DNA of 64,000 bases. Source: Eledone cirrhosa. Lineage: Eukaryota. Location of the stretch: the NCBI GenBank assembly GCA_964016885.1, contig OZ024742.1, positions 199,454,001-199,518,000 on the forward strand. Direction: 5' to 3'. The notes under the pieces were generated by a model. It ran no database searches. It was not told the origin of the DNA and was given only the letters and a program-made list of their open reading frames with translations. The translations under genes and the position numbers were made by a program. This document shows positions 31,690 through 64,000 of the stretch, piece after piece. Within the stretch, counting starts at the first letter, position 1, and each line of letters starts with the position of its first letter.

Positions 31690-32410
31690 TTTGAACCTCT
31701 GTATCTTAGGAATGCTTAAAGATAGCTTAATGGAACTGTCAGGGGGCTTTCTAACACTATTGGACGGCTTGTGTAAAAGATCACTTCAGGATTATGTTTC
31801 ACTTTGTTCAAGATGATCTTTGCCCTCCCTAAACTTCTAACATTTTGTCCTGGAGTAACAAGGTCACAAGTCTTACGTGCGATTTCATTTTCAAGTCTTC
31901 TGTCACCGCTCTTTGAACTGTCATAGCTGACACTCCTGCTTCGTGTGCCAAGCGTCTTATGGATTGAGTTTGATCGCTTATTATTGATCTCTTCAGCTCC
32001 AGATTGAAATGATGATCCCTCTTGCGGTTATGGCCTCCTGATCCAGTTTTCTTCTCCATTATTCCCCCTTTCTCAAACTTATTCACAATTCTCTTGATGG
32101 TTCTTGAATTGACTTTGAAGATGGAAGCCATAGAATGAATGTCGGTACCATTACTGAAGGCCTGGATGATCTTAGCCCGCTCAACATTGCTCAGTTGGGA
32201 AGATGTTGGGAGGCTGGCACAAAATGATTTCAGCCTGTTCTCTTTCTAGCTAAATATCTCAATATGTGTTTTACTGATACTTGCAAAATCTAGTGTCAGT
32301 ATGGCCATGTCTCATCTGGGAAACATGGAAAATTGCAAATCGATTAGTTTATTGGTTTAAAATTTTTTAAAGAATTTGTGAGTGTGGCAATTTAGCTGTT
32401 ACACCCGGTA
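31690..32410 (-). mobile_element. Tc1/mariner-superfamily transposon 5' part (paired HTH domain)
   Basis: ORF 31829-32131(-) with GSGG..RKR linker and SIRRLAHEAGVSAMTVQRAV helix-turn-helix; terminus TACCGGGTGTAACAG at 32410. Confidence 0.8.
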
Positions 32411-32428
32411 TATATATATATATATATA

Positions 32429-35056
32429 TCTCGACTCCTTTCTCTCCTTCTTCTGCTCCTTCCACCCCTCCCTCCACTTCACCACCTCTATCTCCACCAC
32501 CCACGTCCACTTCTTAGACATCTCCGTCGCCTTCGACCCCTCCCACCACTCACTCGTCACCACCGCCTTCTTCAAACCCACCGACTCCCACTCTTACCTC
32601 GACTTCACCTCTTCACACCCCACACACACTAAACACTCTATTCCCTACTCCCAACTCCTCAGGATCCGCCGCCTCTGTAGCCGAGATGCCGACTTTGAGT
32701 CCCAGGCCTTTTCCCTAGTCAGCCATTTCATCTGCAGAGGTTACCCCCCTCTCTCGTCCACACCGCTCTCACCCGCGCCCGTGCTGTCCACCGCTCCACC
32801 ACCCTCACTCCACGCCACCGTACACCCACCCACCGTCTCCCCTTCCCCATCACCTACCACCCCTCCACCATACCCCTCCACTGCACCATCCTCCGCCTCT
32901 TCCGACCCCTCCACCTCCCACATCTTCCCAGCCCCACCACTCCCCTCCTTCAAACGCGCGCGCATCTCCGCACCCCCCTCGTCCACAGCTCCCTACCCCC
33001 CAACCCACGCTCTCTTTCCCCCCGGTTCCTTTCCCTGTTCTAGGCCCCGCTGCAACACATGTCCCCACATCACCAACACCACCACCTTCCAGGGTCCCAA
33101 CGGCCACTCTCTCTCTGTCCGGCATGCCTTCCGCTGCACCTCCTCCAACCTAGTCTACGGACTTCGCTGCACGGAGTGCAGCGCGACTTACGTCGGACAG
33201 ACTGGACGTCGCCTGGCGGACAGATTTACTGAGCACCTCCGGGATATTCGTCTCGGTGGTAGTTCCCCCATCGCCCGCCACTTTGGTGCCCCTGGACATT
33301 CCGCACACCATCTCACAGTCTGTGGCCTACTCCAATGCCACGGAACACCCGCCAATCTCCTAAGAGTCGAACAACGAACCATCTTCATCTTACAGACCCA
33401 CACTCCACCCGGCCTGAACTCCCCACCCTTATTCCTTTAGTGTTCGACCGACCCCCTCCCCCCATACATATCCCCCACTAACACCACTAACACACCCCTC
33501 CTTTTCACCACCCACCCCACAACTAACAATACTAACACCTCCACCCCACATCCGACCACCCTTCCCCAACTAACATACTAACATCCCTCCCTTCTTCTCC
33601 CCCCCTCCTTATCACACGCACACACCCACCGGCACATATATACACGCGCTCACACTAAACACACACCCTACTACCACCACTAACCCTCACCCCCACACAT
33701 CCACCCCACCACCCCGCAACTAACATCACTAACACCCCCTGACCCCAAGCACACGAACACACACACCCACTTACACCACCCACCCTACACGCAACTAACA
33801 TCACTAACACCCTCCAACCCTACGCACACGTACACACACACCCTCTTACACCACCCACTCTACACACCCTACCCCCACTGACCCCCACTCACACCCGCAT
33901 TCAACCCTTTCTCCACCTCCTGTATACTAACACCCACTAATACCATCGGCCCCACACCCTTCTCTCCCCGCTCCACCCACACCCTTTCTCAAACACTCAC
34001 TCATCCCACTAACACCTCTACTAATACACACACACCTCCTCCTCACTCCAACTTTCACACCTACCCATCCTCTCCCCTGTCCACCGCACACACTGACACA
34101 CCTTCACTTACCATTCTACCCTACTGCTGCTATGCCCTCTGACCACCTCCCCGCACACACAGACACACAGCACACCTTCACTTACCATTCTACCCTACTG
34201 CTGCTATGCCCTCTGACCACCTCCCCGCACACACAGACACACAACACTCCTCCTGCATTGACCCTCTGACCACTTCCTGTTGCGCGCGCACCCCACATCT
34301 CCCCTCTTCCGACCAATCTCTTCACGGATTACACGTATGTGAACCTTGATCCCGAGAATCCACCACATCCCAGGATTTTACTAAGCATTCCACCACATCT
34401 TTTTACAGAATTACCTTTATGACTCACCCCACACACACACCCAAAACATTTCTTTTCCCACACGCCACCTACACCCACAACACGCATAAACACCACACAC
34501 ACACGTGCGTACCACCACATATTTACACATTCAAGCTCCGGAATCCTCTCCCCCCACCCCTCTATCCACACACGCACACGCAATCCGACCTACACCCCAC
34601 CCCACACACACCTCTTCCTGAACATGCAACCCCGTTCTTCCCCCAACCCTTGCTTTCACATACACACACACACACACACACACACGTACACCTACACATA
34701 CACACCACCTTCAGCCCTCCCCGCTCGGACACCCCGTCTCCCTCTCCCCACTCCACCCGCCACCACCCCTACACGCCCCACACCCTTCCACCACCTGTTT
34801 TACCCCATTTTAATTTTATTTTGATCATGCCTTTATTTTTAATTTCATTTGCACCGTTTCCTCTCACCCCCTTTTTGCTATATGTCTCTCCACCACTCTC
34901 CTACACACCCTTTGAACTCTCTTCCCACACACTTTTCACCTGAAGAAGGGGTTATGCCCGAAACGTCGTTTCCCACCACCACTCCACTCTGAAGAGCGTG
35001 AAATTAATAAACATTTGTTTGTACTGCCTCTCTGTTTTGTTCCCGTTCAATTTTTC

Positions 35057-38759: not shown

Positions 38760-40550
38760 CACCGTGTAACAAAAAAAATTTTTTTCTTTGTTCCTGGCTT
38801 GTAATCACTGTTTTTGTGTTGCTTAGGTCCCAAATAAATAAAAAAGGGCTATTAAACAGTTACAAGTTTGGGTTTGTAAAAATTCTAAGCTATTCACAAG
38901 AATTATTTGTATGCTGGATTTTACGTTGTATGTAAGTTTAATTTGCTTATGTTAAATGATTTTTTTATATATGTTTCAGGTTAAATTAAAATTATAAAAT
39001 AAAGAAAATTACAAAAGAAAATTATAAAAGTGCAATAAAGTATAAAATTGTTAAAAAGTGGATTAAAGAGATTTATTGATACTGGAGTACCAGAAAAAAG
39101 TTCCTCACTTCCCAAACCCAAAAGAAGTCAATGACTAGGTCAGGGATATGGGTCTGACCAAGTCCAATGCAGAGCTATTCGTCTCCAGGATGAAGCAGTG
39201 GAACTTGGTCAAGGAGGAAGTGCAGGTGACAAGTCAGAGAAGTCGACACGAACCTTTCTCAGGCTTTTATACTCTTAGGGATGGCTTCTGCTTCTGCCAT
39301 GACGTGCCTGGACTGTTGGATGTTACTGGGGTGCCGTTTGTGCCCAAGGAGTGGCGGCTATTTATAGACAGCTCCACCACAAGTTTGAAGGCTGTCCTCC
39401 TCCACAATGGAAACAAGTTCCCGACACTTCCCCTAGCTCATTCAGTCTGCCTGAAGGAAGATTACTACAGTGTGAAAGTCCTCTTGGAAGCTCTGCAATA
39501 CAACCAGTACAATTGGGAAATCATTGGAGACTTCAAGATGGTGGCTTTCCTGCTTGGACTCCAAGGAGGCTTTATCAAATTCCAATGCTTCCGCCTTTGG
39601 GACAGCAGAGCCACCTCTGACCATTACAAAAGAAAGAAGTGGGAGCAGCGAACAGAATTTGTAGTTGGGACCCGGAACGTCATGTGGGAGCCACTGGTTG
39701 ATCCCAGGATTGTACTCATGCCGCCACTGCACATTAAGTTGGGGTTGATGAAGCAGTTTGTGAAAGCTCTCAACTAAGAATCAGCCACTTTTAAGTACCT
39801 TCTTGAGTTCTTCCCCAAGTTATCTGAGGCCCAAATCAAAGGTGGAATTTTTGTTGGACCTCAAATAAAGAAGGTATTTGAGTCTACCGAGTTCTCCAAT
39901 AAGCTCAATAGGATTGAGAGAACAGCATCGAACTGTTTCAATGCAGTTGTTAAGGGTTTCCTGGGCAACTACAGAGCTGAAAACTACCAGCAACTGGTGC
40001 AGGATCTGATAAAGGCTTTTGGCGCCATGGGATGCAGGATGTCGCTTAAACTCCATATGCTGGGCGCTCACCTGCAAAAATTCAAGGACAATATGGGCGC
40101 CTACTCAGAAGAACAAGGCGAACGATTCCACCAAGATGTGAAAGAGATAGAGCAGAGGTACCAGGGCCACTACAATGAAAAAAATATGGGGGACTATATC
40201 TGGGGGCTAGTGCGGGAATGCGACCTGGACTACAACCGCAAATCCAGGAAAGCCAGTCATTACTGACGTGTATAAGCTGCTTTATAAGTGTTATTTGTTT
40301 TTACTTGTTTGCCTTTGATAAGCTTGAGTAATAAAATAAATATATACTCTGTTGATTTAATTATATGAACTGATAAATAATAAAAAAAATGTGTTTTTCT
40401 TGAAAAATATGAACATTTCGAAATATCAAACTCCTGACCACAAACCCAAACTTCTGATTAAATAATATTGTTTTTTAAAAATAATAATGGGATATAACAA
40501 ACCAGTAAATGACACTTAGAACCGGGGAACAAAAAATATGTTACACGGTG
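38760..40550 (+). mobile_element. Chapaev3-like (CMC superfamily) DNA transposon with degenerate transposase
   Basis: TIRs CACCGTGTAACA...TGTTACACGGTG. ORFs 39148-40266 contain WRLFIDSS..SLKAVLLHNGN, GDFKMV..LLGLQGG, PPLHIKLGLMKQFVKAL and SEEQGERFHQD. Flanks (TAA / ATT) do not form a clean TSD. Confidence 0.8.
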
Positions 40551-49038: not shown

Positions 49039-49290
49039 ACTTCGCCGGAAGTTCACTTCTCTGAAAGTTCACATTGAAGAAAGTTTATTTCTCCGGAAGT
49101 TCACCTCATCGGATGTTCACCTCACCGGAAATTTATTTTGCCGTATGTTCACCTCACCGGAAGTTCCTCCCTCTCTGGAAGTTCACATCGGTCAGTCGAA
49201 GTTCACTTCTCCAAAAGTTCACGTCACCGGAGGTTTACCTCGCCGGAAGTTTATTTCGCTTGACGGAAGTTCATTTCGCCGGAAATTCGG
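49039..49290. repeat. Degenerate ~17-bp tandem repeat GTTCACTTCGCCGGAA
   Basis: About 13 imperfect copies. Confidence 0.8.
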
Positions 49291-49554: not shown

Positions 49555-49710
49555 TCACAAATTTGTAAATGCCTCAACTTTCTCAAATGATAACTGTAAT
49601 TTTTCAGATTTTTTAGAAATGTTACTAGTTTTAGGAGAGGTAGTGGTATGTGCAGTAGGTGTGATACTTTTGGTGGGACTACTACTACTACTACTACCAC
49701 CACCACCACC

Positions 49711-49741
<31 letters not shown>

Positions 49742-51069
49742 GAAGTAGTAGTAGTAGTAGTGGTAGTGGTAGTTGTTATTGTTGTTTTTGTTGTAGCAGG
49801 TGTTGTAATAATATCTGACAGTGTGGTGACTGCAGTTGTTGCAACACTATCAATATCAGTAATATCACTATCAGTAGTAGTAGTAGTAATTATTTTGGTA
49901 GCATCAGTAGAAGTAGAAGATGGAGTGGTAGTATCAGTTGCAAATCTAGGGAGTGTAGTAGTAGCATTGTCAGTGTCTTTATTTTTAATTGTAGTAAATT
50001 TATCGTTATTTGCAGGAACTTTACTTTTAGTTGCCGTAGCTTTACGTTTCATTGCAGTAGCTTTACGTTTCATTGCAGTAGCTTTACTTTTAGTCGCAGT
50101 AACTTTATTTTTAGTTGTAGTACTAGATGTAGTGGTGGTATTACTTAAACGAATAGTCTCAGTACTAATTTTATTAGTTCTACTAGGTTTGCTAGTTTTG
50201 CTAGCTTTGCTAATACTTCTCTTGCTAGAGACATCCAGGAACATGTTAATAGTTGTCGTCATGGTCTGGAACTCCTCCTTTTGGCTACTATCATTATTCT
50301 TAGAGTTAATGTGCCCTTCCAGTAGTTTAGTTTTTTTCGTTCCTTTCCTTGCACCATTCTTGTGAAGTTTCTTGTTAGGCAGCGTCTCTGTTTCCCCAGT
50401 AAAGTTCTGAAAGGAAGAATTGGAAGCCAACGTAATATTCTTTATCTTCTTTTGCTTAAGATGTTTCATTGGCTTCGATATTTTAGTTTTATTCTTGGCT
50501 TCATTCTGTTTCTTTTTGGTGGAAGATTTCACCTCCTCTTCGCTTTCTTCTTCCTCTCCATTTTCTTTTACCTCAGTTAATTCGTCTGTATCCAATTCCA
50601 ATGTTAAATTCTTCGTTTGAAGATCTGATGAAGAATTTAACAAGGTATAGTTTAAGTTTAACTTCACCTTTTCAGACCGTTTATTTGATAGGGATACGTT
50701 ACGTCTTCGTTCGCTCTCGGCGGTTTTCTTCGCCGTTGACAAAAGTTTCTTCCGCCTCGTTGTTTGTTTAACTTTTTCTGCGGTCGAATTGGTTGGTTCA
50801 CGTCGTTCGGCGGCTGATGTGGACTTCCGGCTGACAGAAAGACTTGGTACGCAAGTCGTGTAGTCCAAGCTTGATGTTGAGCCGTTGGGACAAGGTGCGC
50901 ACAGTCCTTCGTCTGGGATATAATGATCTGGTGGACAAGGCACACAAATGTAGCAACAGTCTTCTGCACTCCTGCTGGTTTTTATATGACCGGGTTCACA
51001 CGGCAAACTGCAAAATGAAGCAGGGAAAGTTGGTTCAATCCCACGGAATTTGATTCGTCTGAGGGTTTC
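49555..51069 (-). CDS. Terminal exon of a class C GPCR/mGluR-like protein: nine-cysteine (NCD3G) domain plus Lys/Thr/Ser-rich tail, no 7TM
   Basis: Minus-strand acceptor ttttccccaacag at 51070. Reads ETLRRIKFRGIEPTFPASFCSLPCEPG...CCYICVPC...LCAPCPNG...TTCVP with mGluR cysteine spacing, then stays open ~430 codons to TGA at 49555. Confidence 0.8.
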
Positions 51070-51603
51070 CTGTTGGGGAAAAATAACAAAATGAAAATAA
51101 AAATAAAATAAAACAACAATTATTCATATATATACATATATATCTAAATATATTATACGTGCATATGCATATATTTCACACACATACACATGTACCCCCC
51201 CCCCTATATATATTTTGACGATATGTTAGCTTAAAGTTAATAGCTTCAATGCAGTTTTTTGACTATGAAGAAAAGTCTAACAAGTCGAGTATATAGTCAC
51301 TAGGGGGTGTATATACTCCATTTGTTAGACTATATTTCATAGTTAAAAACCTGCATTGAATCTGTTAATATAATTAACTGTTAACTTTAACGATTATATA
51401 TACAGACCCGCCAACTTCTAAAAACCCAAACGAGCTCTGGCCGTTTCAACAATTAGATCCGAACTGTTCGGATGTAGCTGTCGAAACGGCCGGAGGTCAG
51501 CCGTCGGGATCCTGACTCTTTTCCTATTACTCACTCTACTACTCTAAGTACCGAGTACTCTGGTGCGTTATGGTCCACCTGGTTCCTTACCGCACTCCCT
51601 TCG

Positions 51604-53501
<1,898 letters not shown>

Positions 53502-53710
53502 ACAGCGAGGGAGTTTCGTGTTTAAGGGAACTTATCAATCAGTTTGATAAGTGCCCTTAAGCACGAATATTTGGCCCTTGACTCACTGGTATAGATATAT
53601 AACTATTATTATAATACATATCACTATAATCATGAATTGAGATTTGTTTCTCCCGTTTACGCATATATACATATGTATGTATGCATGTATCTATGTATGT
53701 ATATATGTAT

Positions 53711-54141
53711 GTCAATGGCCATCCAAAATCACCGGGAGAGATGACCCCTTAGCCTTTGTCAAGGCAGAATTCTAGGAGAAGGAAAACTCTGATATAACAC
53801 CTTCCACCCTGATGGTATCCAATGATGTTGACTTGTTCTTCTTTTTGGTAAATATCACCTTGGTTAAGAGAGTGGGACTGGCTTTGTGCAGTGCCTTTGC
53901 TCACTATAAAAGCTTCACTGCACAGGCATTGCTTTATATCTGGAGATCTCTCTGCAGTTGTCGCCACATGGTACCATGGGCGCAGCACTATGTGTCAATA
54001 ATTGTCACAAGTGTAGTGATTGTACCAGAGTTTTCAAGTCGCTGGCTGGACTAAAATGTCACACTCGTTCAGCGCATCGGTAGGGGTTCTCCTACATAGA
54101 TATAAAGTAGTGGCCGTACTCGAAAACGAGTTGCCAGCCAC
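53711..54141 (+). mobile_element. Non-autonomous RTE-type derivative, copy 3
   Basis: Homologous to 301-903 in the opposite orientation. Confidence 0.7.
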
Positions 54142-54257
54142 AATATATGTATGTAAGTATGTATATATGTATGTGTGTGTGCATGTGTGTATAGGCATGC
54201 ATTTATATATTTATTTTTATACACATACATACGTACATATATATATGATTATATATG

Positions 54258-54357
<100 letters not shown>

Positions 54358-54399
54358 TACATATATATATATACATCATACATACATATAGATATATAG

Positions 54400-54470
<71 letters not shown>

Positions 54471-54737
54471 CATATATATATATATATATATATATAGTAG
54501 AATAATCGAGTATCGAAAAATCGGCGCACGAGTTCACGATAAACAAAATTCGAGATGATCGGCAGAGGGCTCTATAATTCAAATAAATTAGAGCTATAAC
54601 TATCGTTAAAATACCGTCACACGTAGAATATGTCTACAATCAACCAAATAACCGAAAAGTTCGATATGGAAGATTCGGGCCACTCAGATAAATTATCAAT
54701 AAATCAATAAATTATATATATATATATATATATATGT

Positions 54738-54860
<123 letters not shown>

Positions 54861-54903
54861 TGTATGTATGATGTATATATATGCATATATATGTATATAT
54901 ATA

Positions 54904-55450
54904 CATGGTGGCGGCCAACTCGTTTTCGAGTATGGCCACTACTTTATATCCATGCAGGAGAACCCCTACCGATGCGCTGAACGAGTGTGACATTTTAGTC
55001 CATCCAGCGACTTGAAAACTCTGGTACAAACACTACACTTGTGACAATTATTGACACATAGTGCTGGGCCCATGGTACCATGTGACGACAAGTGCAGAGA
55101 GATCTCCAGATATAAAGCAATGCCTGTGCTGTGAAGCTTTTATAGTGAGCAAAGGCACTGCACAAAGCCAGTCCCACTCTCTTAACCAAGATGATATTTA
55201 CCAAAAAGAATAACAAGTCAACATCATTGGATACCATCAGGGTTGCAGGTGTTATATCAGAGTTTTCCTTCTCCTAGAATTCTGTCTTGACAAAGGCTAA
55301 AGGGTCATCTCTCCCGGTCATTTTGGATGGCCATTGACTCTTAAGAGCTCCTTTGCCCTTTGACAGGTTTTGTTTTTATTCCTGCAGGATGTTCAAAGTC
55401 ACCCTCCTCACCAAGAAACCTTGGTGGGGTTGCCAGTTTAGTCGCCAACG
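54904..55450 (-). mobile_element. Non-autonomous RTE-type derivative, copy 4
   Basis: Homologous to 937-1481. Confidence 0.7.
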
Positions 55451-57320
55451 TAAATGCACACTCTCCGCCCTAGTGATACAGGATCGATCTACATAACGCA
55501 CCACCGCACCGCAAAACCACGTGGAGCGCATGCAGCGGACCACAATTGAACACCGCATATCTATGAATGCATGACAGTATAAGTTGATAGCAGTGACAGT
55601 TCAAACGTTGCCCACCTCGTAGAACACCTTAATAGCACCACCACACCAACTTGCGGACGCCGACTCATTACAAGTAGGATTGGGTCTACAGACATACGTG
55701 TGGTTTTAAATTTTCAAATTTCTAAATTTTCAAACTTCAAAATTTTTAAACTGTTGATTTCCGATATTCGATTCGCGGTGCTTAATCCGCTACTTGGATG
55801 ATGGACGTGATGCTGGTCTTAAGGTTAATTTCGCAGCTAATTGTAATGTTGATGTCAATTTTAATTTTAATTTTGATTTTGATTTCAAGTTTTAATTTTG
55901 CCGTTCCATGCCACCGATATACACACACGCACACAACGCATGCCGCTGGCACATTTCATCATACATACACTCCACGTGCATTCCATATATATTGTTATGA
56001 AGCACATACCCTTTATATTCCATGTATACACCAAACCCATGCACATCTCATATATACTTTTATGAAATGGATGTTACACATAACCACAATATATATAACT
56101 TGTTTGTGCACGCACGCATTGACCACACCTATCCACAAGCAACGAGACCTGCATCATGCGCAGGCTCTACCCAGTGCCTTAGCCCAACATCCCCCATGTA
56201 TATCGTATAAACATTTGCACCACAGCCCACAACTACTGTATGAAACTTGACGCACACCTCTGCATCCTTGTCATGTATGCACTCTCTTTTTCCAGCATTT
56301 TATTTTATTGTATTTTATCTTTTATTTTATTATTGTATAGTATTTCATTATTTTATGTTCTGTGCATACAGGTTTTTTTAAAAAATATATGCGACCCACG
56401 CTATATGCGATTAGTGCAGGGATATTGTGCTGCCGTAATATGTAGGCATATTGTGCAGACACTCTCGGACTCACACCGCTACGTGATCAGGTTGGGTTAA
56501 GGCCTCAAATGCGTTGTCTCATACAATACTGTGTGCACCATCCGCGCAGCGACGCGTGGTGGGTACTCATCAAGTATATGCATCCTGTGTTGAGCACGCG
56601 GTATGTATGTGTGCCCACACAGACATGCATGAGCATGGGTGTGTGGGGGTACGGATGACTTTCCATGGATTTTTCTTTTCCCATCTGCCTATATAAGTGT
56701 GCGGCGTCTTGGCTACGCACGCTCCCCTGAGTCTAGTGTGTGAGTGTAGAATTGGGTCTATTTGTTGAAAACACCTTTGATATAGCCCCTCCGTTTGAAT
56801 GGCTGTTGAAAGCTTTCTTTTTAAAAACATTTTTAAAAAAACGTTCTTGCTACATGTTCTTTCTTTTTCTTTTTCCTTTTCTTTTTGAAATATGTATGGC
56901 GGAGTGTATCCTAAGGCTGTGTCCTACTAATGTTACGCTAAATATCCCCATGATTTTTTTTAATTTTAAATTCCCGCAAAACATTATTTATGATGAATGC
57001 CGCATACAGCATAATTGTGGGTGTGTACCTGACCGATGTAGACTAAGGCACCTAGGGGCAATGAAGACGTCGAAGTGATGCCAGCCGTTCAAGATTACAG
57101 CCACACTCCCACCACAGTAGTAATTCTGATATATGAAGATATTTTGATTGACAGGTGGAGAACGAGAGGAAGCAAGAAGTTGGCAACCATGAGTGGCTAG
57201 AAATACCGATGACGTGTACGATTCTTGACCACTCATGGAATGACAACAACAGGATCTAAATCAACAAACGAAGAAATTCGATGTTAAAGGACTATAGGAA
57301 AATCTACTTCGTAGAATCAA

Positions 57321-57416
57321 GACGTATCTGACGACCGTGTTGATTTCAGAGTCAGGTGTGGTCACCATATCTATCGTGCCTCGAGCTGGTCGCCCGAGAA
57401 ACATTTGTAATATGTC
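57321..57416 (+). ncRNA. Hammerhead ribozyme (family H9)
   Basis: GACGTAT CTGACGA ...GAAA C-ATTT-G TA ATATGTC. 7-bp stem I and exact core, 110 nt before a (TA)n; the stem II base is weak. Confidence 0.6.
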
Positions 57417-57627
57417 CAATAAATTCCTTTCGTCGCAACACTGATTCTCTTTTTTCTGTGATATCATACTCTGCTCTACGAGGGCATTGAGTGCTCATAC
57501 GGACGCTTTAAGCATCCAACACCAATTATATATATATATATATATAGTGAAAAATTGAACGGGAACAAAACGGAGAGGCAGTACGAACAAACGTTTATTA
57601 GTTTCACGCTCTTGAGAGTGGGGTGGT

Positions 57628-57668
<41 letters not shown>

Positions 57669-57814
57669 GTACGTTATTCCGGGTTGAATCGGAGGTAACC
57701 ACAGTAAGTAAGGTACTCAATACATTGCAGAGTATAAAAGTTTTAATATAGATGAGATTCTACAGGACTAGAACTGTTTCATTCTTTAGAAATCATCAGG
57801 AATCAGATGATTCA

Positions 57815-57867
57815 GAGATTCCTGATGATTTCTAAAGAATGAAACAGTTCTAGTCCTGTAGAATCTC
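57815..57867 (+). ncRNA. H1 hammerhead; mirror copy at 57756-57804(-)
   Basis: GAGATTC CTGATGA tTTC-taaa-GAAt GAAA CAG..CTG TA GAATCTC. Confidence 0.82.
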
Positions 57868-57876
57868 ATCTATATT

Positions 57877-57931
<55 letters not shown>

Positions 57932-58153
57932 CGAAGGAAAAGTGGTAAGGAACCAGGTGGACCATAACGCACCAAAGTACTCAATACTTGAGGTAGTAGA
58001 GTGGGTAATAGGAACCAGTAAGACCCCGACAGCTGAGCTCAAGCCGTTTCGACGGCTAATTCTGGACTCAGAATTAGCCGTCGAATTAGCCGTCGAAACG
58101 GCTTGAGCTCAGCTGTCGGGGTCTTACTGGTTCCTATATATATATATATATAT

Positions 58154-58254
58154 AAATGGAAAAAATGAAATTTCATTTCTCACTCTTAGTACGGCTGATA
58201 CTTAAATATAAGTATGTATAGATACATACATATATGTATACAGACGTACAGTAG

Positions 58255-58327
<73 letters not shown>

Positions 58328-58908
58328 GCACACATATATATATGTACGTATGGGTTTCCCGAACATTTATTATAATGTTTGGTTTGTTTGCAAACAAACA
58401 GCCCGAATTAAGCCGTACAGTGTTCGGCAACCATCGTTGCCCTTTTGTTCAACACTGACAAAGGAACGATGAACTAGTTTCAAGCTTATTAGCTATCATC
58501 AGCACCGTATACCTTTCTGTCAGATGATTGAACATTTATTATAATGTTCGGTTTGTTTGCAAACAAACATCGATATGCAAATTAGGCTGCTCAGCCGTTA
58601 ATATGCACAAGGAAAGTATATACTTTCAAACGTTCAATCATCTGTCAGGAAGGTATACGGTGCTGATGATAGCTAATAAGCTTGAAACTAGTTCATCGTT
58701 CCTTTGTCAGTGTTGAACAAAAGGGCAACGATGGTTGCCGAATACTGTACGGCTTAATTCGGGCAGTTTGTTTGCAAACAAACCGAACATTATAATAAAT
58801 GTTCGGGAACTCATACGTACATATATATGTGTGCATGTATGTATATATATACATACTACTGTACGTCTGTATACATATATCTATGTACCTATACATACTT
58901 ATATTTAT
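58154..58908. repeat. H3 retrozyme-like units in inverted arrangement; HHRs at 58461-58515(-) and 58650-58704(+)
   Basis: Homologous to the 13595 unit; AAGG-tat-ACGGTG CTGATGA tAGC..GCTt GAAA CTAG TT CATCGT-t-CCTT. Confidence 0.88.
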
Positions 58909-59200
58909 ATATATATATATCGTTTCTGAATTTGTTTAGCAAGATTCTTTATCTGAAAACGTGTGTTGAAATCGATATTGTTATGCTTTGGGAGGGTCAT
59001 GTTGCCAATAAGAAACACACGCACCATCAATTTATAAATTTAAGAATTATATAAATTTCCGGTTGGTTGGTTGGTTCCATAACCGGACGGTTGTTCATAT
59101 ATTGTCAAAGTTCTTTCGTCACACATTCTGTGACCTCTTTAGTGACTGGGGATTCTTTTCTTTGTTTTGTGCCTCTCCTTTGTTCTGTCCTAAACCATCT

Positions 59201-59242
<42 letters not shown>

Positions 59243-60796
59243 AAATATATATATATATTATATTATATATATAAAAAAGTAAGTCCATAGAATCATTAGA
59301 TAAAATATATATACAGTATTTCTTCTCCCAATCAGCATAATCAACCACACAAAAAATATATTATATATATATATATCTGTTAGAACACGAAAAGTGTGAA
59401 ACAACAGAATGTTCACTTTTCGTGTTCTAACATATATGCCTAGCTTCTTTAAAAATTTTTCGGAGATAGCCGTGGTGGTGGTGATCGTATGTCATTGGCT
59501 AATTTTCAACCAATCAGAGTACCTCTCTCTATATCTCTTCCACTGTTACTTACGCCTGTTTCTCTCTATCTGTTCCGTCTCTATATATATCTCTTACTCT
59601 TTCGCTTTGCACTCCTCCCCTTCAATACCATCTCTCCCCCTCTCTATATATTTGTTACTCTATCGCTGCACGCTCCTCTCCTTCAATATATCAATTACAC
59701 ACGCTTTACACTCCTTTATCCCCAGCGCCCCTATATATACACCCCCCTCTCCCGCATCTATATTTTAATGTACCGTTGTACCGTGAATATATGTGTCTAT
59801 ATATATATACATATATATTGTATATACACATTCATGTATGTGTATACACACTCATGTATGTATATACACTGGTTTTATGTGTGTATTGTAAATTTGTACT
59901 GTTAAAACACGAAACTAACATTCGATTGACACTTTGATTACCTGTACAGGCAATAGTTATTAGAATGCTGTTGAAGTGTGTATATATTTTTGGGGGACAT
60001 CCTGTATATACACACATTATATATAATACAATAAACAGATAAATACACACATATATATATGAGCTTATTTAATTATAAATATTGTGAATTTTTAACTCAG
60101 TTCAATTATATATATAAATGGCTTCTACAGGACTAGAACTGTTTCATTCGAAAGAAATCATCATAATATTGAGAGGGGGGACTAGATAAAATATTTCAAA
60201 TCAAATGTGTATAAGTTATAAGTTAAAATGTATAAATAGAGACGATAGTGGAGGTATATCTGTTTAGTGGAACAGTAGACGATAGAATTAAATACAGACG
60301 AGAATCTCCCTTTAATGAAACAGCAGACGATAGAATTAAGGCAATTTAAATTTTAAGCATTTGCATTTTTGCCTTTCATCGTTACGGGGTCGATAAAATA
60401 AAGTACCAGTAATACACTGTCACTAGACGACTTTCAAATTGAATTGTTGGTTCCATTTCTTTAGTATTTTCAATTGTAGTTATCTACTTAAAAAGCGTTA
60501 CACGGTTAGAGACATAATTCGTAAGTTATATCTTCCCTATTAAACCATTGCATTATTTCGCCTACAATAGAACAAAAATGAAATGTTCTTTAAAGAAACA
60601 GGAATATAACTTTATAAAAAAAAAAGTTGCATCCGCTTCTTTTATCATTGATCATTTTTTCGTTTTAATATTAATTGTTTTTTGTAGTTGTTTATATTAA
60701 AAATCTTACTGTAATATTTACTTAAACGAAGGCAAACATCTAAACTTATAGATTAATCTTGAGCGAAGGACTAGATAAATCTCTCTCTCTCTCCCC

Positions 60797-60827
<31 letters not shown>

Positions 60828-61945
60828 AACGAAGAATGATAAAATTTCAAGCAAAGAGTTTAATTAGGTATATTTTGTAATATTATTAACTAATTATTAT
60901 AATTAACGCGCATATTTTGCTATCCTCAAACACGTTTACACATGGCATGAAATATAACTAATCCTAGATGGCTAGGTTTCATCTTCTAACTGGATATACG
61001 AAATCCATTATGTCTTGACAACAACATGAGGTAACATTATGTTATTCACAGACACACTTTGTACACTGTTCCATATCAGAATGTATTTCCTTCGTCACAT
61101 TCACAAACAGTATTGAAAATATGTTCTTCGGCAAATAAAAATGTTTTGTTCATAATATTTCAACTAGCGATTGCTCTACTCCACGCACGACCACCATAAA
61201 TTAATGACCAGCTCAACACAAGTATTGGTAGAGCGTCAGACACCATGCTTTGCAGTATTGTTATGGTCCTTTGCATTCTAAGTTCAAATCCTGCCGAGGT
61301 TAACTTCGACTTTCATACTTACTAATTCGATAAAATAAAGTACCAGTAATGGACTGCCGTAATGGATTTGTGCCGAAAAATAGAAACACTATTAATGTGC
61401 AATAAGAGCAAAATATAACGACATTGCTCAATTATTTTATCTAATGTTGTAATAACACAAGGAAATGTTGTTTGTGTATTTTTTTTTATATTTGCTCATA
61501 GGCTTTTACAATTTCGCTCAGCCAACAACTATTAAAAAGTGAGTTGCTTAAGATAACAATTTAATCACAAATTGTTGCTATCTTTTAATACACTCCAACA
61601 AGTCATCAAATTATGTACAATAAAAACAAATCTTATTAATTTGCTCAGGGAATATAAAGAAAATGTATATACACTGATAATTGCAATTGTATGTAAATAT
61701 TTTGTTTTTGTATTGTATATTTTATGTTTTCTATTATGTATAATATATTGATTTAATATTGATTGTTTTTTGTAGTTGTTTATATTAAAAGTCTGAAAAT
61801 ATTTTTATACATCTTACACTAATATTTATAAGATAATTTATAATAACAATTACATAATCTAATTACATTACAACGATAATTTATTATTAATATATATCCT
61901 GTTTAACTAGAGTTATTACAAGCGTTGCCTTAAAAAAATATTAAA

Positions 61946-62900
61946 CTAGACATGAAAAATGCGCAAGCTCAAAAGTGCCACAGAATGTTATAATAAACCT
62001 TCAAAAGTGTGGGACTAGAGTTGTTGCTAAAAAATATTGTAATCATTATATATCGTACATTCTGTGGCATCCTTTATAAAAATAGCTTAAACCAACGAAG
62101 CCTTTATTTTTACGCTATTTCACTTAGTTAATTCTTAGAGTGTAACATATAAAAATAAATACATCTATGTTTAATGTAATAACAGCTATAAATAATTACG
62201 TAATATTATTATCATATACTCATAGTAACAAAATAATTGTGTTGAAACTTAATATGATGCTTATATGAACGATCAAATCTATAATGATAATTTCTTAAAT
62301 ATACTAATAGTAAAATAATTTAGTTATCTATTGTTACATTTTCATAGAACTATAATATTAACAATCGTATTGCATTATCAAATTTTTATCACTACAAACT
62401 TTCATATTGGAATTACCTTAAGCCACTTATTATTACTTCGCTTTCGTACTTTTACAGCTGTAGATATTGCGCTGTATCTTATATCTAATATCAATATCTC
62501 GTGGTAATTTGCATGAAGTGTAAAATAGGTTTATTAATAACTTTAATATGAAATGTATTATACAGGGCTGCGGAGTCGGCCAAAAATTGACTGGCTCCAA
62601 CTCAGGATCCGATACTCCATTATTTCCTAAATTTCAGCTCCGCAGCTCTGTTATTATATTAATTAATTTATTTTATAGTTGTAAATCATATTTTTATATG
62701 TTACACTCTAAGAATTAACTAAGTGAAATAGCGTAAAAATAAAGGCTTCGTTGGTTTAAGCTATTTTTTATAAAGGATGCCACAGAATGTACGATATATA
62801 ATGATTACAATATTTTTTAGCAACAACTCTAGTCCCACACTTTTGAAGGTTTATTATAACATTCTGTGGCACTTTTGAGCTTGCGCATTTTTCATGTCTA

Positions 62901-62902
<2 letters not shown>
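61946..62902. repeat. Long inverted repeat (~210-bp arms 61946-62157 / 62691-62902) enclosing a small MITE at 62560-62651
   Basis: Arms appear to be perfect reverse complements; the right arm ends ACTAG-mirror (CTAGT) at (TA)n. Confidence 0.85.
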
Positions 62903-62965
<63 letters not shown>

Positions 62966-63247
62966 CATATTTACATATATATGCATATACATCATATATA
63001 TATATATTTTTTTTAAACCCATCAACCATGACCCCCACCCATCTTGTAGACACCTGAAATATACGCATTGTTAGCTTAAGAGAAACTTAACAATAAGGAG
63101 TGGCACCCCAATTTGAACATGTTTATAGAATTCTTTCTGCGTTTGTCACTCTAAATATAAATTATAGCTTTAAAGAATTAGCTTTTAAAGAATTCCCTTT
63201 TCTTTCAACCAAAAGATATAAATACCAGCACATTTACTTGGACAGTC

Positions 63248-63298
63248 AGCTTCCTGATGATTTCTCATGAATGAAACAGTTCTAGTTCTGTAGAAGCT
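63248..63298 (+). ncRNA. H1 hammerhead (module runs to 63381)
   Basis: AGCTTC CTGATGA tTTC-tcat-GAAt GAAA CAG..CTG TA GAAGCT. Further H1 pieces at 45031-45225 and 60116-60163(-). Confidence 0.82.
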
Positions 63299-63378
63299 CT
63301 TCTATATTAAAACTTTATACTCTGCTTTGTATTGAGTACCTTACTTACTGTGGTTACCTCCGATTCAATCCGGAATAA

Positions 63379-63483
<105 letters not shown>

Positions 63484-63500
63484 GTACATATATACATCAT

Positions 63501-63549
<49 letters not shown>

Positions 63550-64000
63550 TATATTTATATATATATGTACATATATATACATATATCTACATAGTTTTAT
63601 ATATATATATATACACTTATATATATCTTTTTTCTTTATATATATATATTCATATTTATATTTATAGAGACACCCAAACACCCAATCCCGCCCCATACAC
63701 GTACACGTTCGTATTACAACGAACTACAGCCAGCTTAGCTTTACTTTAAGGGTCCAGCCGTTTGGAAAAGAGTAGTCAAGCCGAGATAAGATATTGAACG
63801 GCTGTCTTCCTGTGTCTAAGTGATATTGTCTAAACGGATAAGAGTCACCGAGTGATTGAGATGATGCTTTTAATTCGATTATTCTGAATTCCCATTAGAT
63901 ATCTCTTGATATCTCATATCTTTAGTTAAGTGATAAAATAAAATGTCAACGTGCTAAAGATTAAATACAAGAATATTAAGCCAGGTCTGGGAAATTATTA

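Follow-up and report, generated by a model that had tools for sequence, protein, structure and literature searches.

The question raised by this locus in Eledone cirrhosa is what kind of protein results when a cysteine-rich domain of the metabotropic glutamate receptor (mGluR) type is followed by a long hydrophilic tail and a stop instead of a seven-transmembrane region (7TM). The window, i.e. the whole stretch of 64,000 nucleotides that was analysed, covers positions 199454001-199518000 of contig C3 (OZ024742.1) within a 3.0-Gb genome, and its minus strand carries at 51069-49555 a frame of 504 aa closed by TGA. This frame is exon 9 (49555-51069, phase 0), the last coding exon of the gene, which encodes the end of a Venus flytrap, the cysteine-rich domain and the tail. 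An earlier note, made from the letters of the stretch, had described a good acceptor, a complete nine-cysteine pattern and about 430 hydrophilic residues with NxS/T sites before a stop, with no hydrophobic segment among them, and all of these elements were borne out. Intron 8 closes with a polypyrimidine tract and an AG acceptor (51070-51110 on the minus strand), the AG ending at 51070. All nine Cys lie within the first 73 residues of the exon 9 product, where Pfam and PDB matches place the nine-cysteine domain NCD3G at 50851-51012 (minus strand); Pfam NCD3G (PF07562) matches residues 16-65 of the exon (50875-51024) with E 3e-11, above the cut-off, and the best PDB matches are the cysteine-rich domains of mGlu3. 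After the ninth Cys, 431 residues with 13 NxS/T sequons run to the TGA, and the peak 19-residue Kyte-Doolittle mean among them is 0.96.

Exon 9 belongs to a gene of nine exons on the minus strand, which spans 123 kb and has 8/8 introns of the GT-AG type and a single, terminal stop. A profile search of the genome gave flytrap matches 85 and 121 kb upstream of exon 9 on the same strand, and exons 1-9 were located in order with the Argonauta hians protein P0002 (990 aa) as a guide. Beyond the window on the minus strand of C3 lie exon 1 with the ATG, the leader and Glu87 (199626399-199626003), exon 2 with Cys145 and Ser167 (199599068-199598911), exon 3 with Lys189, Ser190, Arg191 and Tyr239 (199589616-199589446), exon 4 (199588158-199588011), exon 5, in which the equivalent of Asp301 is deleted (199585226-199585087), exon 6 with Asp423 (199541003-199540701), exon 7 (199536952-199536847) and exon 8 (199534898-199534762). 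Intron 8 (29,692 nt in total) fills the window from 51070 to 64000 and extends past it, while three AATAAA, candidate polyadenylation signals, stand at 49084-49255 on the minus strand (starts 49255, 49137 and 49089). The joined frame of 1,024 aa comprises a hydrophobic leader ending in V-N-G, a basic cluster, the flytrap, the cysteine-rich domain and the tail, a layout of predicted signal peptide, mGluR-type Venus flytrap, NCD3G and 431-aa hydrophilic tail. The upstream ANF_receptor exons and the signal peptide that the earlier note had expected are both in this gene model, the latter as a prediction from the N-terminal hydrophobic helix.

The open frame of exon 9 is not a product of chance. 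The tail frame was open in 0/5000 Markov simulations, and there are 16 and 73 stops in the two alternative frames. Relatives keep the tail frame open as well, the orthologue conservation on which the earlier note had made its reading depend. Three runs of a single sample gave DNA contigs that match the letters of exon 9 wherever they cover it, with one differing letter at 50537; the repeat at 49668-49800 was skipped in this comparison, and these runs may be the source of the assembly. Read contigs of runs X1-X3 cross introns as DNA would (at exon 9 and, for X1, also at exons 7-8), and X4 gave little coverage; no splice joint was seen in the contigs of the four runs over exon 9 or in those of X1 and X4 over exons 7-8, X1-X3 being DNA-like.

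The surroundings of the exon hold other features. A gene of ODAD1 type (outer dynein arm docking), with an exon at window 4462-4809 (plus strand, E 5e-26), is convergent with the ectodomain gene, and the frame at 29234-29623 (plus strand), which has no Pfam match, may be the last exon of this neighbour. A mobile-element remnant occupies 6566-9621 (plus strand), with a zinc-knuckle frame and then broken frames which we take to resemble a LINE endonuclease/RT, and further remnants lie at 31829-32245 (minus strand), 32382-33440 (plus strand) and 39139-40266 (plus strand); among the kinds represented are a helix-turn-helix transposase-like piece, a GIY-YIG (Penelope-like) piece and a transposase-like frame pair without a Pfam match. 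Near-identical tandem copies at 13658-14936 and 15573-16359, ~930 nt apart and accompanied by repeated microsatellite-rich blocks, may stem from local duplication or from an error of assembly.

The tail itself is rich in T (20.6%), S (14.6%) and K (13.9%), contains no Cys, has a net charge of +34 and is built in two parts, a K/E-rich half and then a T/S-rich half. At the place usually taken by the linker and TM1 (50770-50847, minus strand) stands a conserved hydrophilic motif of 26 aa with an NST sequon and RK/RR pairs. Across six members 62% of its columns are invariant, with identities of 73-92%, and it is more conserved than the cysteine-rich domain itself, which indicates that the frame there is under selection; the motif is a possible cleavage or binding site. 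Past these first 26 residues conservation is poor. A K/E-rich, sequon-rich part that is predicted to be disordered (50230-50769) is followed by a T/S-rich, mucin-like part with trinucleotide runs that is long only in octopods (49630-50229), and by a C-terminal segment with an LQLSFEKV-type motif common to octopods (49555-49629), all on the minus strand; this last segment forms a short helix, at low confidence, in the model of the O. vulgaris orthologue. The description of the tail as mucin-like in the earlier note fits the T/S-rich part in octopods, but not the tails of distant relatives, which are K/E/S-rich. Sequons exceed the shuffle expectation in 5/7 tails (p<=0.0002) and, under local shuffles, in 7/7 (p<=0.034). 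The tail in the window has 13 against 9.6 expected (p 0.11 under the whole-tail shuffle, 0.015 under the local one), and that of Argonauta gives p 0.17 under the whole-tail shuffle. The cytosolic tails of full-length receptors hold 120 sequons against 147 expected, and this deficit, together with the excess in the family tails, supports passage through the secretory pathway.

Among class C features, the product has the flytrap and the nine-cysteine domain, and the 7TM after the latter is absent. With four 7TM queries, no 7TM-like match better than E 1.5 was found in 464 kb around exon 9 (~250 kb downstream), and a genome-wide 7tm_3 search gave 26 matches, only one of which lies on C3, at 3.12 Mb and 196 Mb from exon 9. 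The statement in the earlier note that no 7TM exons follow thus holds for ~250 kb downstream, and C3 has no other 7tm_3 match than that of a class IV mGluR gene. A hydrophobic segment above 1.6 occurs in 0/12 family tails, the 12 proteins including the gene model of the window and several near-copies, as compared with 5-8 segments in 5/5 full-length receptors. Within 120 nt past the ninth Cys, the only donors are two weak GT(A/G) sites with scores of 0 and 2 of 5.

These results bear on the other option that the earlier note had left, an alternative terminal exon, by which exon 9 would close one splice form of a conventional full-length receptor, with the 7TM exons far downstream or absent from the assembled sequence. 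Class C genes are huge here, the class IV gene measuring ~1.2 Mb, and the locus was read directly for ~250 kb downstream; yet C3 has no 7tm_3 match beyond the class IV gene, and downstream on the opposite strand there is the ODAD1-type gene. The assembly does contain gaps, but a strong donor within the 120 nt past the ninth Cys is lacking, and the conservation of the post-cysteine motif above that of the cysteine-rich domain likewise speaks against an ordinary receptor. An annotated alternative 3' end exists in O. vulgaris: P0003 (CAI9731371.1) is a shorter isoform that diverges from the tail close to a weak internal donor-like site (window 50144), its C-terminus being a different, mildly hydrophobic 25-mer (19-residue mean 1.4), for which the 464 kb gave no convincing counterpart, the best matches being short, on either strand or in repeats. 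No 7TM was found in any of the 12 family proteins, however, all of which end in a helix-free tail, and the option of an alternative last exon is considered highly improbable. It is with great confidence, instead, that the overall layout is read as that of an ectodomain gene without a 7TM. As follows from the class C mechanism for a protein that lacks the 7TM, such a product would be unable to signal via G proteins alone.

The ectodomain search returned 10 proteins, five of them family members, namely those of Argonauta (the query) and O. vulgaris, a partial O. bimaculoides record named 'mucin-5AC' and two others at 62% and 60% identity, and the other five full-length receptors at 23-33% identity. 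ANF_receptor and NCD3G without PF00003 were found in P0002 of Argonauta, P0003 and P0013 of O. vulgaris, the partial P0006 of O. bimaculoides, and P0004 and P0005, with E values for PF01094 (ANF_receptor) of 4e-44 in P0002 and 6e-43 in P0013. Identity to O. vulgaris over the ectodomain is 82%, and the tails of the 12 proteins with the cysteine-rich domain measure 245-431 aa. Logan contigs of 2.9-3.9 kb carry whole frames of 829-865 aa (P0016 in 92 contigs, P0017 in 9), and frames of exon size whose letters are identical or closely akin (P0186, P0190 and P0185) continue into intron sequence at the borders of exons 1, 6 and 8, from which we infer that the short contigs of the 60-62% relatives are spliced transcripts. 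In trees these relatives are sister to the octopods, and they are probably squids or cuttlefish. Neither a relative between 57% and 36% identity nor a gastropod or bivalve orthologue was present among the best 150 of 3,596 matches in a search of 1.84 billion representatives, so the family of 7TM-less ectodomains looks restricted to cephalopods. A protein atlas search gave only ordinary class C ectodomain clusters.

In databases, members of the family are named 'mGluR3-like', 'mGluR6-like' or 'mucin-5AC', three octopus records being partial, and receptor counts or single-cell labels for cephalopods may include a family protein that cannot be a receptor. In E. berryi, 'Grm1' (EB26454) is given as a photoreceptor marker, in 44% vs 4% of cells (PMC12240821, supplement 4), and both this gene and 'Grm4-2' (EB16165) are listed there with ANF_receptor only, in a table that seems to give one domain per gene. 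Spiralian mGluR families are mentioned in PMC12240821, a 7TM-less one not being among them in the parts searched, and the table of an octopus skin-mucus proteome (PMC10138644) had no match to 'metabotropic' or to the two accessions tried. In the full-text literature searched, no description of a cephalopod 7TM-less ectodomain gene was found.

A likely source of the gene is present on the same contig, where a full-length class IV (Mtt/mXR-type) mGluR gene spans ~1.2 Mb (C3 3.12-4.35 Mb). At a protein identity of 30%, the two genes agree in the aligned codon and the phase of 8/8 ectodomain introns, while other paralogues share, as judged from match spans, at most 0 (C27), 1 (C14), 3 (C18) and 4 (C4) of the eight. 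The 7TM exon of the class IV gene begins after TM1, and tblastn, patterns and a genome search did not reveal any exon for the cysteine-rich domain and TM1 of this gene in the assembly, so that the comparison for exon 9 is incomplete; a gap of 200 N lies just upstream of this 7TM exon, at C3 3,126,075-3,126,274. Among single-domain relatives, the best matches are receptors whose two distal pocket positions hold Ala and Gln, which fits the class IV signature, i.e. distal Arg and Lys replaced and backbone contacts kept, as set out in passages of PMC6307864. By the same distal residues (PMC6307864), the ectodomain gene, with Glu87 and Asp423, also falls to class IV; the full-length form with a 7TM is absent from it, and it is therefore class IV-derived rather than a member receptor.

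For ectodomain trees, 102 of 163 rows were kept (61 partial or multi-flytrap rows were dropped), and 37 and 20 rows were then chosen. The family falls inside the class IV-type clade with SH-aLRT 97 (37 rows) and 100 (20 rows), in quick trees whose support values are all SH-aLRT or FastTree and whose clade labels, with no named Drosophila Mtt row present, are our own, based on pocket residues and database names. Union of the family with group II was rejected (p-AU 0.002), and union with the molluscan class IV pair was not recovered as a sister relationship but was not rejected either (p-AU 0.196). The stem of the family is 2.1-2.7 changes per site long, and its tips are ~0.1-0.2. A class IV origin is held to be very probable, and because the gene has its eight introns in common with the class IV one and trees put the family in class IV, the locus is probably a truncated duplicate of that gene which took a new role. 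We infer that duplication without the 7TM exons and extension of exon 9 into former non-coding DNA were followed by fast change and then by strong constraint.

Several other class C loci of this genome were observed. A receptor at C25 9369452-9371107 has, between flytrap and cysteine-rich domain, a Thr-rich insertion of ~25-30 residues, encoded by an exon in which its 7TM also begins. At C4 178.54-179.74 Mb, mGluR exon matches on one strand are out of order, with N-terminal exons at 179.26 and 179.74 Mb and later ones at 178.54-178.67 Mb, for which misassembly, rearrangement and two genes are alternatives. Several consecutive flytrap matches precede one 7tm_3 match at C22 14.39-14.43 Mb. An intronless group II-type mGluR of 909 aa (C27 4966900-4969600) is sister to the intron-poor copy on C14 (27.05-27.06 Mb), has a longer branch than that copy and is a possible retrocopy. 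No 7tm_3 match is listed for contig C12, where a single-exon flytrap at 47213678-47214673 may represent a further 7TM-less gene or a portion of a larger gene.

What the flytrap may bind is suggested by its pocket. In mGlu3 numbering, 6/6 members have Arg68 replaced by Glu, Thr174 by Arg and Lys389 by Asp, and Asp301 deleted, the Lys389 column adjoining a gap and being the least certain of these assignments; Ala172 (Ala/Phe) is replaced by Lys, and Ser151, Ser173 and Tyr222 are kept in 6/6. The Thr174 position is Arg in 6/6 members vs Thr in 88/96 other rows, and the Asp301 position is deleted in 6/6 vs Asp in 85/96. The residue set for glutamate of groups I-III (Arg68, Ser151, Thr174, Tyr222, Asp301, Lys389) is thus not kept as a whole, nor is the backbone-binding set of class IV conserved in the family, with Thr changed to Arg, Asp deleted and Ala/Phe changed to Lys. 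In the new pocket, basic side chains stand at the former amino-group site and acidic ones at the former distal-carboxyl site, and they are invariant.

The loss of Thr and Asp in 6/6 members makes binding of glutamate, or of any alpha-amino acid, in the usual way unlikely, and the new residues may bind a new ligand or may pair mutually and fill the cleft. The 'decoy' idea of the earlier note accordingly fared poorly where glutamate and alpha-amino acids are concerned, the Thr and Asp that grip them being gone. A secreted buffer or decoy for glutamate or amino acids would be in keeping with the flytrap fold, which is intact in the model, with the retained equivalents of Ser151, Ser173 and Tyr222, and with the flatworm protein SmGBP, described in part of PMC3206071 as a truncated mGluR that binds glutamate; the equivalents of Arg68, Thr174, Asp301 and Lys389, however, are all replaced or deleted in 6/6. 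Moreover, passages on fly receptors report that a class IV receptor minus only Arg and Lys is already unresponsive to glutamate (PMC6307864), and that the Thr174 equivalent is needed for activation of DmXR, even by canavanine (PMC2695807). Such a buffer or decoy is regarded as very improbable.

An AlphaFold2 model of the O. vulgaris orthologue, made with a 70-row alignment, consists of an N-terminal helix, a confident flytrap and cysteine-rich domain (pLDDT mostly >90 for residues 50-590) and a disordered tail (<50 over 597-922), and the best superposition on mGluR ectodomains has TM 0.90 and an rmsd of 2.7 A (5kzq). From mGluR structures we take residues 49-215 to be the upper lobe, including the dimer helices and the upper part of the pocket; 73% of them are invariant among six members vs 42-45% for the remaining ectodomain, and the loop Cys of the upper lobe is kept. 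A homodimer prediction for residues 49-520 of P0013, run without an alignment, scored 0.06 vs a mark of 0.32. One reading of this conservation is that the protein is a soluble modulator: lobe 1 would pair it with a full-length class C receptor (that of class IV or a different mGluR), whose signalling it would block or tune, as has been suggested for truncated GABAB1 isoforms. The dimer-forming upper lobe, with its loop Cys, is indeed the most conserved part, but homodimerisation accounts for the same conservation. The parent-type class IV gene is still in the genome, and GABAB1e is described in parts of PMC8577127 and PMC2987798 as able to pair with GABAB2; at 30% identity to the class IV paralogue and with a very long stem, however, the interfaces of the family have probably drifted apart, and the invariance of the altered pocket residues would be left unexplained. 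A modulator of this kind is considered unlikely.

The N-terminal hydrophobic helix of 16 residues ends in V-N-G, conserved in 6/6 members, and is followed by a strong basic cluster. Signal peptidase favours small residues at -3 and -1, and in the usual type II pattern the basic cluster is on the side opposite to one placed after the helix. Judged by these features, the ectodomain protein is probably secreted, although the helix could instead be an uncleaved anchor. In the latter case the product would be a type II cell-surface protein with the flytrap and the glycosylated tail outside. A 16-residue hydrophobic helix near the N-terminus would allow this, as would the precedent of SmGBP, reported in part of PMC3206071 to be tightly membrane-bound and to have a similar N-terminal segment, whereas the conserved V-N-G end fits the -3/-1 rule of signal peptidase, the basic cluster is the reverse of the usual type II pattern, and hardly any cytoplasmic part would be left for signalling; the anchor is thought rather unlikely. 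Tethering of a secreted protein by its tail is likely from charge and composition. Of the secreted or matrix-bound flytrap protein proposed in the earlier note, the class C ectodomain gene without a 7TM stands, and secretion or matrix binding has the status of a prediction.

The reading that we favour, with modest confidence, is that of an extracellular binding or scaffolding protein derived from a class IV duplicate and having a new, non-glutamate partner. A copy of a class IV mGluR gene would have been truncated, with the 7TM exons left out and exon 9 running into former non-coding DNA. Its product, predicted to be secreted and glycosylated, would likely be dimeric via lobe 1 and likely be held on the cell surface or matrix by the basic tail. 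The conserved upper lobe and the rebuilt charged pocket (Glu87, Lys189, Arg191, Asp423) would bind a new partner, be it a small molecule or a protein, and the product would serve as an extracellular binder or scaffold with no G-protein signalling of its own. It is a more tentative suggestion, to which we give somewhat less than even weight, that the flytrap dimer, charge-reversed pocket and glycosylated basic tether make up a carrier, a trap or a synaptic or matrix organiser whose ligand is new to class C. If true, a secreted flytrap protein would be a lineage-specific addition to cephalopod cell signalling.

Compared with known systems, the protein shares the flytrap and cysteine-rich fold of mGlu2/3/5 structures (5kzq, 6n4y, 2e4u, 7wi6; E 2e-74 by sequence), from which it differs in its rebuilt pocket and by an identity of 26-29%. 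The rmsd of the model is 2.7-3.9 A to antagonist-bound or apo forms and 6.4 A to glutamate-bound 2e4u, a difference to which little weight is given as the model is ligand-free. To our knowledge, the endogenous ligand of class IV receptors is still not known, and a flytrap that is soluble by nature and has a rebuilt, invariant pocket would be easy to express and to screen for non-glutamate ligands of class IV-derived flytraps; it could also serve as a biosensor scaffold. With class IV mGluRs, as portrayed in parts of PMC6307864 and PMC2695807 for Drosophila Mtt/DmXR (the latter source calling DmXR an 'orphan'), the cephalopod protein has in common the flytrap and cysteine-rich domain and the replacement of the distal Arg/Lys, and with the class IV-type gene of its own genome the 8 ectodomain introns; unlike them, it is without a 7TM and cytoplasmic tail and has lost the Thr and Asp that class IV keeps, at 30-34% identity. 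Ectodomains without a 7TM are also known from GABAB1e, a secreted splice form (PMC8577127, PMC2987798) that is N-glycosylated according to PMC8577127, and from a short mGlu3 variant cited in PMC3206071. As far as these sources describe them, both are isoforms of full-receptor genes with the pocket of the parent, whereas the cephalopod protein has a separate gene, its own pocket and a new tail of 245-431 aa.

In light of the portions of PMC3206071 consulted, the closest precedent is SmGBP/SjGBP of flatworms (Schistosoma, Schmidtea), which likewise has a dedicated gene for a 7TM-less mGluR ectodomain with an N-terminal hydrophobic segment, each of the two genes being conserved within one animal group. 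SmGBP, of 488 aa, is without the cysteine-rich domain and long tail that the cephalopod protein has, and it keeps the equivalents of Arg68, Ser151, Thr174, Tyr222 and Asp301 and binds glutamate, in contrast to the rebuilt cephalopod pocket (PMC3206071). Its authors report that they found no such proteins outside flatworms. From the differences in layout and pocket, and with SmGBP not knowingly in our trees, the two genes appear to be independent in origin, and the cephalopod one would offer a clean case of a GPCR ectodomain that was freed by partial duplication, changed quickly and later became constant.
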